A program made the translations under genes and the position numbers. Positions 40,934-41,177 of a DNA stretch of 64,000 bases are shown one piece after another; the stretch's first letter is position 1; each line of letters begins with the position of its first letter. Where the stretch lies: assembly GCF_056746865.1 (NCBI RefSeq), contig NZ_CM163382.1. One strand, written 5' to 3'. The notes beneath the pieces are model-generated. The model made no database searches, was not told the origin of the DNA, and saw only the letters and a list, made by a program, of their open reading frames with translations.

Positions 40934-41005
40934 AGAAATCACAGGACATTGCTAATGCTGGTACGCAATATTACCTGAAGCTAAAAACCTGCACGTTAGC
41001 CCTTT

Positions 41006-41043
41006 GTAGGCCAGATAAGACGCGTCAGCGTCGCATCTGGCAT
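41006..41043. repeat. REP (BIME-type) palindromic unit GTAGGCCAGATAAGACGCGTCAGCGTCGCATCTGGCAT
   Basis: Typical E. coli REP consensus-like imperfect palindrome in the fimH-gntP intergenic region. Confidence 0.7.
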
Positions 41044-41070
41044 AAACAAAGCGCACTTTGCTGGTCTGTT

Positions 41071-41109
41071 CCCCTCACCCTAACCCTCTCCCCGGAGGGG
41101 CGAGGGGAC
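41071..41109. repeat. short GC-rich palindromic intergenic repeat (CCCCTCACCCTAACCCTCTCCCCGGAGGGGCGAGGGGAC), box-C-like
   Basis: GGGG/CCCC-rich inverted-repeat structure resembling a dispersed E. coli intergenic repeat family; family assignment is from memory. Confidence 0.4.
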
Positions 41110-41144
41110 TGTCCGGGCACATTTTTAGACTTTGTCATCAGTCT

Positions 41145-41177
41145 GAGCCTGCCATTGGCAGGCTCTGGTGTCCTTTT
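41145..41177. terminator. hairpin (GAGCCTGCC-ATTG-GCAGGCTC) followed by TGGTGTCCTTTT; candidate terminator at the convergent fimH/gntP junction
   Basis: Perfect 8-9-bp stem read from the sequence; a T-tract follows only on the plus strand; abuts the gntP stop codon. Confidence 0.4.

Follow-up and report, generated by a model that had tools for sequence, protein, structure and literature searches.

RESULTS AND DISCUSSION

The fimH-gntP spacer is a mosaic of ordinary elements

The spacer between the convergent genes fimH and gntP is a mosaic of one locus-specific element, a hairpin next to the gntP stop codon, and two repeat insertions, a single REP unit (REP345) and a BoxC/PIT/TMECO unit, all of which are either catalogued or ordinary. 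We consider it probable (about 70%) that the hairpin serves the fim operon as an intrinsic terminator, that REP345 acts as a barrier to RNA decay, that the BoxC unit is a passenger, and that transcription of gntP is ended by Rho. The identities, copy numbers, presence or absence and sequence signatures of these elements were observed directly, whereas everything said below about termination and RNA stability is what we infer.

The window (the whole stretch of 64,000 nucleotides that was analyzed) is 100% identical to E. coli K-12 MG1655 over the spacer and its flanks, and its positions are converted to MG1655 coordinates by adding 4,508,777. The spacer measures 242 bp and is bounded on both sides by convergent genes:

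40022-40933, + strand: fimH, open reading frame (MG1655 fimH, end 4549710)
40931-40933, + strand: fimH stop codon TAA, the last codon of the fimAICDFGH operon coding sequence
41176-42519, - strand: gntP, open reading frame (MG1655 gntP, 4549953-4551296)
41176-41178, - strand: gntP stop codon TAA, overlapped by a T run of the + strand

A preliminary description of this DNA had reported a REP-like palindrome, a CCCC/GGGG-rich palindrome and a perfect hairpin at a convergent gene junction. Sequence reading and computed inverted repeats placed all three structures where they had been reported, and fimH (+) and gntP (-) indeed face each other. The suggested relation to dispersed repeat families held for two of the three structures, which match REP345 and BoxC/TMECO no. 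23, while the hairpin is single copy. Since the K-12 spacer has already been described under the names REP345, BoxC/PIT/TMECO no. 23 and HPGQ 52, it is already known and ordinary.

Folded as a whole, the spacer was more stable than every shuffled sequence on both strands (z = -5.6 and -6.5). No Rfam family reached its gathering score in the spacer or elsewhere in the 64-kb window, no tRNAs were found in the window, and a consensus scan of the spacer revealed no promoter-like site. The short open reading frames of the spacer (44 aa on the + strand; 37 aa and 34 aa on the - strand) overlie the repeats and were treated as mechanical. FimR2 was considered as a 3'-UTR small RNA of the fim operon downstream of fimH and was rejected, as it derives from the fimA-fimI spacer.

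A single-copy hairpin with a U-rich tail on the fim strand

The locus-specific element consists of a hairpin and the tail that follows it in the fim direction:

41145-41165, + strand: locus-specific perfect hairpin, 9 bp with loop ATT (inverted repeat I4, 100% complementary)
41166-41177, + strand: U-rich tail TGGTGTCCTTTT, which reads TGGTGTTCTTTT in most other alleles

On the + strand, the hairpin folds at -18.3 kcal/mol (z = -3.7). It is single copy (median of one place per genome) and was present in 5,285 of the 5,426 E. coli genomes (97%). When 100,044 species representatives were searched, the exact hairpin was found within the Enterobacteriaceae only in E. coli and cryptic-clade Escherichia; eight other exact matches, in unrelated taxa (Coprococcus, Anaerolineales and others), were taken as chance palindromes.

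Variation of the hairpin was followed in 14 loci chosen for diversity. Among these, a single one of the 18 stem positions varied, in one strain and with a change that breaks a pair, and no compensatory changes in the stem were seen; the central loop base, the two stem-flanking bases and two tail positions varied as well. A near-invariant stem between variable flanks and around a variable loop is consistent with constraint on the stem, and the conservation may perhaps just reflect short divergence times. E. coli ESBL_DR28 (L027) carries a stem-breaking T-to-C change (GAGCCCGCC) together with a truncated fimH that is annotated as an incomplete fimbrial protein.

Next to the hairpin, a T run occurs only on the + strand (TTTT, 41174-41177), 8 nt past the stem and overlapping the gntP stop codon. 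Beyond the hairpin on the - strand, the sequence is AGACTGATGAC, with no T run, and the earlier observation of a T-tract on the plus strand only was thus correct. At 41172, the K-12 allele has a C where most other alleles and the cryptic-clade outgroup have a T; judged by these alleles, the C is a derived T-to-C change. In the K-12 allele, the tail is interrupted (UGGUGUCCUUUU), and the T/T that closes the stem does not pair.

Terminator signatures on the two strands

In a consensus terminator scan, the hairpin and tail of the window, i.e., of the K-12 allele, fell below the rule on either strand. On the fim strand (+), the hairpin was called terminator-like in three other alleles (L002, L005 and L006), with stems of 9 to 13 pairs and tails GTGTTCTTTT, and the outcome of the scan differed with T or C at 41172 and with the pairing of the closing bases. 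On the gntP strand (-), no terminator was called at the hairpin in any locus scanned. There, the tail reads AGACUGAUGAC in alleles with the BoxC unit (filled alleles) and (U/A)GUUCGGAUUGUC in alleles without it (empty alleles), neither of which is a U-tract in the gntP direction. A hairpin with a T-run on the - strand of SEC470, a candidate for a gntP-direction terminator at the fimH stop, was rejected on comparison with shuffled sequences (z = +0.10 in SEC470 and -0.48 in K-12).

The element resembles intrinsic terminators in its GC-rich stem of 9 to 11 bp, its 3-nt loop and its U-rich tail on the fim strand, and it was called as such in the three alleles above; it differs from them in that the K-12 allele, with its interrupted tail, fails the scan. 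With the bidirectional terminators of convergent genes described by SEnd-seq (Ju et al. 2019, cited second-hand), it shares a palindromic hairpin common to two 3' UTRs. In contrast to these, however, K-12 lacks an A-rich tract upstream of the + strand stem and consequently has no U-tract for gntP; even in the empty allele, the left flank of the hairpin is only weakly A-rich (ACAATCCGAAC). The composite bidirectional terminator proposed in the preliminary description is thus supported only in part: the fim half finds a counterpart in the terminator-like hairpin of other alleles, whereas the gntP half has no signature in any allele.

In the reading that we prefer, the hairpin and its U-rich tail would form the intrinsic (Rho-independent) terminator of fimAICDFGH transcripts, which would have their 3' ends at the gntP stop codon. 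The T-to-C change at 41172 would weaken the tail in K-12, where termination is probably leakier. Transcripts of gntP would contain the same stem without a U-tract, which could act in them only as a 3' stem-loop that slows exonucleases.

Alternatively, the hairpin might be mainly that of gntP, either as a noncanonical terminator or as the processed and stabilized 3' end of its mRNA, in which case the T run of the + strand would be a by-product of the TAA stop codon and AAAG. Such an assignment would suit the position of the stem, which begins 10 nt past the gntP stop codon, its persistence beside gntP remnants where most of the gene is deleted, and the joint fold that it forms on the - strand with an adjacent small hairpin of 5 bp (41125-41176, 52 nt; -23.3 kcal/mol, z = -5.3). 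However, the - strand has no U-rich tail in either filled or empty alleles, the gntP orthologues of Yersinia and of a relative with 86% identity are followed by different hairpins, and the structure is equally well positioned at the end of the fim 3' UTR. We therefore regard it as unlikely that the hairpin serves mainly gntP.

The stem and loop can also be written as a perfect 10-1-10 palindrome, GAGCCTGCCA-T-TGGCAGGCTC, which might function as DNA, bound by a dimeric protein, and not as structured RNA. Perfect dyad symmetry, single-copy occurrence and conservation would all be expected of such a site, but its location at the 3' ends of two genes in a spacer devoid of promoter-like sites, the variation of its central and flanking bases and a U-rich tail that fits a terminator make this extremely improbable. 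We know of no binding protein or motif for this palindrome.

gntP and its downstream sequence outside K-12

Orthologues of gntP are scarce. After the E. coli cluster, the nearest full-length GntP relatives among the top matches were an unnamed protein from a sequencing-run assembly (86% identity) and proteins of Yersinia (82%), Gilliamella (77 to 79%) and Corynebacterium (66 to 70%), and no orthologue from Salmonella, Citrobacter or Klebsiella was among these top matches. Such a patchy distribution of protein matches hints at horizontal acquisition. In two gntP orthologues from outside Escherichia, those of Yersinia and of the 86% relative, the hairpins found downstream were unrelated to that of E. 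coli, and one of them was a canonical terminator. This indicates that the E. coli hairpin is specific to the junction and was not inherited with gntP. Because the sequence 3' of gntP is unrelated outside Escherichia, no deeper alignment of the hairpin is possible.

In three strains (ChlosBP-23-1, ECCTRSRTH03 and L3452210II; L003, L007 and L024), gntP is reduced to a 3' remnant of 93 to 108 nt that is annotated as a pseudogene, and the hairpin and spacer are kept; in L007, uxuA starts ∼450 nt beyond the remnant. In the cryptic-clade strain Escherichia sp. MOD1-EC7003 (L023), no open reading frame of at least 150 aa was listed at the expected fimH site (10283-11200, - strand), and fimH may be disrupted in this strain.

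About half of E. coli genomes lack the BoxC/PIT/TMECO unit at this junction

The G/C-rich palindrome of the spacer corresponds to the core of a known repeat, which lies within a longer unit:

41071-41106, - strand: BoxC/PIT/TMECO core, type 'A mm', CCCTCGCCCC-TCC-GGGGAGAGGG-TTA-GGGTGAGGGG (blocks checked by script)
41059-41145, - strand: extended BoxC-containing unit, ∼87 nt (blastn and alignment with other copies)

The arms of this palindrome (41070-41080 and 41098-41108) are 11 nt long and 91% complementary. It folds at -22.5 kcal/mol on the + strand and -25.7 kcal/mol on the - strand, with z values of only -1.8 and -2.4, which are modest because shuffled sequences of the same composition also fold well; the palindrome is nonrandom by family membership rather than by fold energy. 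Weak Rfam matches over the core, to Antizyme_FSE and whalefall-1, were dismissed as chance matches to the G/C blocks.

Base for base, the core is TMECO no. 23 (4,549,883-4,549,848, antisense, 'A mm') in Table 1 of Holder et al. 2015, and it is the same as HPGQ 52 (fimH/gntP, class HPG1) of Kaplan et al. 2016. The TMECO motif, which is considered the same as BoxC and as the PIT elements that Hoyne and Maher described and has 23 copies in MG1655 (Holder et al. 2015), is a pattern of 34 to 37 nt in which the G/C blocks CCCTCKCCC(C), GGGGAGAGGG and GGGTGAGGGG are joined by short loops, the second loop being TTA (type A) or CCG (type B). When reverse-complemented, 41071-41106 fits this three-block pattern, with TTA as the second loop.

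In a blastn search, positions 41055-41145 matched a median of 16 places per genome. Where the copy at fimH-gntP is lacking, the best match elsewhere covered positions 5-91 of the query at ∼86% identity, and the copies at alx-sstT, entC-fepB and pstA-pstB could be aligned over ∼41059 to ∼41145. The fimH-gntP copy thus has the hallmarks of the BoxC/PIT/TMECO/HPGQ family: it is intergenic, one of many copies and located at a strain-variable locus, and its core shows no difference from TMECO no. 23. It departs from the published descriptions in that its similarity to some copies extends over ∼87 nt, compared to 34 to 37 nt for the TMECO core or the 50 to 56 nt quoted for BoxC, which is a question of how the unit is delimited and not a sign of a new family.

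When a 351-nt query spanning the spacer was used, 2,823 of 5,426 complete E. coli genomes matched over at least 80% of its length and the rest matched in two pieces; the BoxC unit is missing from ∼48% of the genomes. The part specific to filled alleles, 41062-41143 (81 to 82 nt), stands where the empty allele has 12 to 13 nt, CGACAATCCGAAC, a sequence common to empty alleles from several lineages and from the cryptic-clade strain MOD1-EC7003. Empty alleles occur in about half of E. coli as well as in the cryptic clade, which marks the BoxC unit as dispensable and as derived, whether by insertion or by replacement. The two alleles do not differ by a clean insertion with target-site duplication, as 12 to 13 nt were replaced. 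The 12 nt of the empty allele match the family consensus GACTGACCGAGC at 8 positions, and the empty allele could, by this resemblance, be an old and heavily deleted BoxC copy rather than a virgin site.

TMECO elements show no bias in orientation or in the function of neighboring genes, and their loci are unusually variable between strains (Holder et al. 2015). PIT elements had neither promoter nor terminator activity in tests that are cited second-hand in Holder et al. 2015. Triplex and G-quadruplex formation has been described in vitro only and for other copies (Holder et al. 2015; Kaplan et al. 2016), and in vivo footprinting gave no support to a stable triplex. Most likely, the BoxC unit is a passenger at this locus, either selfish or neutral, and not a working part of a terminator.

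REP345 and turnover of REP units

The remaining repeat of the spacer is a single REP unit, with an outer stem and a variable segment on its fimH side:

41006-41042, - strand: REP345, single REP unit (conventional GCC...GGCCTAC reading on the - strand; GTAGG at the 5' end on the + strand)
40999-41007 and 41046-41054: outer 9-nt inverted repeat extending the REP stem (I5, 89% complementary; paired in both whole-spacer folds)
40964-40984: allele-variable segment, putative remnant of a second REP (columns 65-95 of the allele alignment; spacer sequences)

REP345, GTAGGCCAGATAAGACGCGTCAGCGTCGCATCTGGCA, is an imperfect palindrome of 37 nt with the conserved GTAGG end of the REP consensus. Its arms (41007-41023 and 41028-41044; inverted repeat I1) are 17 nt long and 82% complementary, and the RNA of each strand reaches a fold energy of -21.9 kcal/mol (z = -6.1 and -5.7), with none of 200 shuffled sequences folding as well. 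It could be aligned to the second REP of the Rfam model naRNA4 (30.7 bits, E = 0.0026) with every stem pair standard, and it stays below the gathering score of 59.5 because the model comprises two REPs and only one is present. In the REP catalogue of Harris et al. 2026 (bioRxiv 10.64898/2026.03.23.713779, supplement), it is listed as REP345, 4549784-4549819, 'Convergent', fimH/gntP. A strict pattern derived from REP345 matched only REP345 itself within the 64-kb window, and a megablast search with the whole 351-nt spacer query found a median of 6 places per genome, among which REP and BoxC matches are mixed. Extragenic, located at a convergent junction, catalogued by name and in agreement with the naRNA4 REP consensus, REP345 is like other REP/BIME elements of E. 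coli, but it is single, and its partner REP is degenerate in K-12.

The segment just 3' of fimH (∼40964-40984) occurs in at least four allele forms (loci L005, L006, L026, L017 and L023 were compared). In the O111 and SEC470 alleles, a second REP is intact there (CCTGAGGCGCTACGCTATCAGACCTAC) and is oriented opposite to REP345, making a BIME-like pair; strain E69 has a third form. The spacer of the cryptic-clade strain MOD1-EC7003 contains only the second REP and no REP345. By comparison of these alleles, the K-12 segment would be the remnant of a second REP, and the fimH-gntP spacer appears as a typical hotspot of repeat turnover.

REPs can attenuate transcription and also stabilize upstream mRNA, and expression is higher in those convergent gene pairs that have a REP (Harris et al. 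2026). In the same study, REP325 (yjdMN) was found to attenuate transcription, partly via Rho, and to stabilize the upstream mRNA. Like REP325, REP345 lies in a 3' UTR with a Rho-binding peak nearby; unlike REP325, which is a multi-REP array within a tandem operon, it is one REP at a convergent junction, and we assign its role by analogy. By this analogy, it is plausible that REP345 serves as a decay barrier for both 3' UTRs. For a REP at a convergent junction, a role as decay barrier or partial terminator is in line with published REP work; PIT/BoxC elements, in turn, are reported to lack terminator activity.

We also considered whether REP, BoxC and hairpin together make up one composite bidirectional terminator and stability barrier for fim and gntP. 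All three structures fold stably on both strands, the whole spacer outperforms every shuffle, and the literature links REPs between convergent genes to bidirectional terminators and to higher expression. Nevertheless, the outgroup lacks both REP345 and the BoxC unit, and the latter is also missing from ∼48% of E. coli genomes, so that the composite arrangement is a recent accident of insertions. No allele has a U-tract in the gntP direction, and PIT/BoxC elements are, at second hand, described as being without terminator activity. A single composite device, as originally proposed, is therefore very unlikely.

Transcript ends and Rho-related signals around the spacer

Curated Term-seq data contain no 3' ends at MG1655 positions 4,549,6xx to 4,550,0xx on either strand (Adams et al. 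2021), probably owing to poor expression of both units in the media used. A paper on Cas12a and fim contained nothing on the native fimH terminator. Rho-related signals were found on either side of the spacer, one of them in the antisense strand of fimH:

40806-40913, - strand: rut (Rho-binding) peak mapped in vitro, opposite the fimH 3' end (Harris et al. 2026, supplement)

This rut peak was mapped at 4549586-4549690 without NusG and at 4549583-4549687 with NusG, 94 to 97 nt from REP345 (Harris et al. 2026). It lies beyond the spacer and downstream for transcripts running in the gntP direction, and the table of the same study contains no bicyclomycin-sensitive transcript that overlaps it. On the other side, a Rho-dependent region of the + strand is located at 4551233 (window ∼42456), antisense to the 5' part of gntP (Adams et al. 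2021), which means that + strand transcription exists beyond the spacer. This transcription could be read-through from fim, implying weak termination at the hairpin. An internal promoter is another possible source of + strand transcription antisense to gntP at ∼42456.

It might be argued that Rho or polymerase collisions end both transcripts and that the structures in the spacer, being selfish or neutral DNA plus a fortuitous palindrome, are irrelevant to transcription. With its four or more allele classes, the spacer is indeed highly plastic, TMECO loci lack a regulatory pattern and vary to an unusual degree (Holder et al. 2015), no Term-seq 3' end falls in the spacer (Adams et al. 2021), and Rho-related signals flank it on both sides. 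Yet 97% of genomes retain the hairpin, the stem of which hardly varies although its flanks and loop do, and most sampled alleles have a proper U-rich tail, which together render complete irrelevance quite unlikely. In our preferred reading, gntP would lack an intrinsic terminator, its transcripts would be stabilized by the stem-loops, and Rho would most likely terminate them further on, antisense to fimH, where a rut site was mapped in vitro.

Proposed history of the junction and its meaning

The hairpin with its tail would be the oldest part of the spacer. REP345 would have been added beside an older REP, providing a stable stem for both convergent 3' UTRs. Judging from REPs that have been studied, it would form a barrier against 3'-to-5' decay and might also, with the help of Rho, partially attenuate transcription. 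The ∼87-nt BoxC/TMECO unit would be a later insertion in about half of E. coli. A more speculative scenario, which we consider highly unlikely, starts from an ancestral spacer, resembling that of the cryptic clade and of the empty alleles, with a weakly symmetric terminator (A-rich flank ACAATCCGAAC, hairpin and U-rich flank), in which insertion of BoxC replaced the A-rich flank and, together with the tail change of K-12, altered the ends of fim and gntP transcripts. If this were true, a common 'selfish' repeat polymorphism would make strains differ in read-through, in antisense overlap and in the mRNA stability of gntP and of the operon for the type 1 fimbrial adhesin.

Beyond annotation, the significance of these findings is small. 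The hairpin by the gntP stop codon reads as a terminator of the fim operon rather than of gntP, and in the laboratory K-12 allele the U-tail appears weakened. Presence or absence of the BoxC unit is a frequent polymorphism of the fimH 3' UTR, and fimH itself serves widely in strain typing and is of interest in virulence research. If this polymorphism affected the ends of fim or gntP mRNAs, it would provide a small example of repeats that tune expression between strains.
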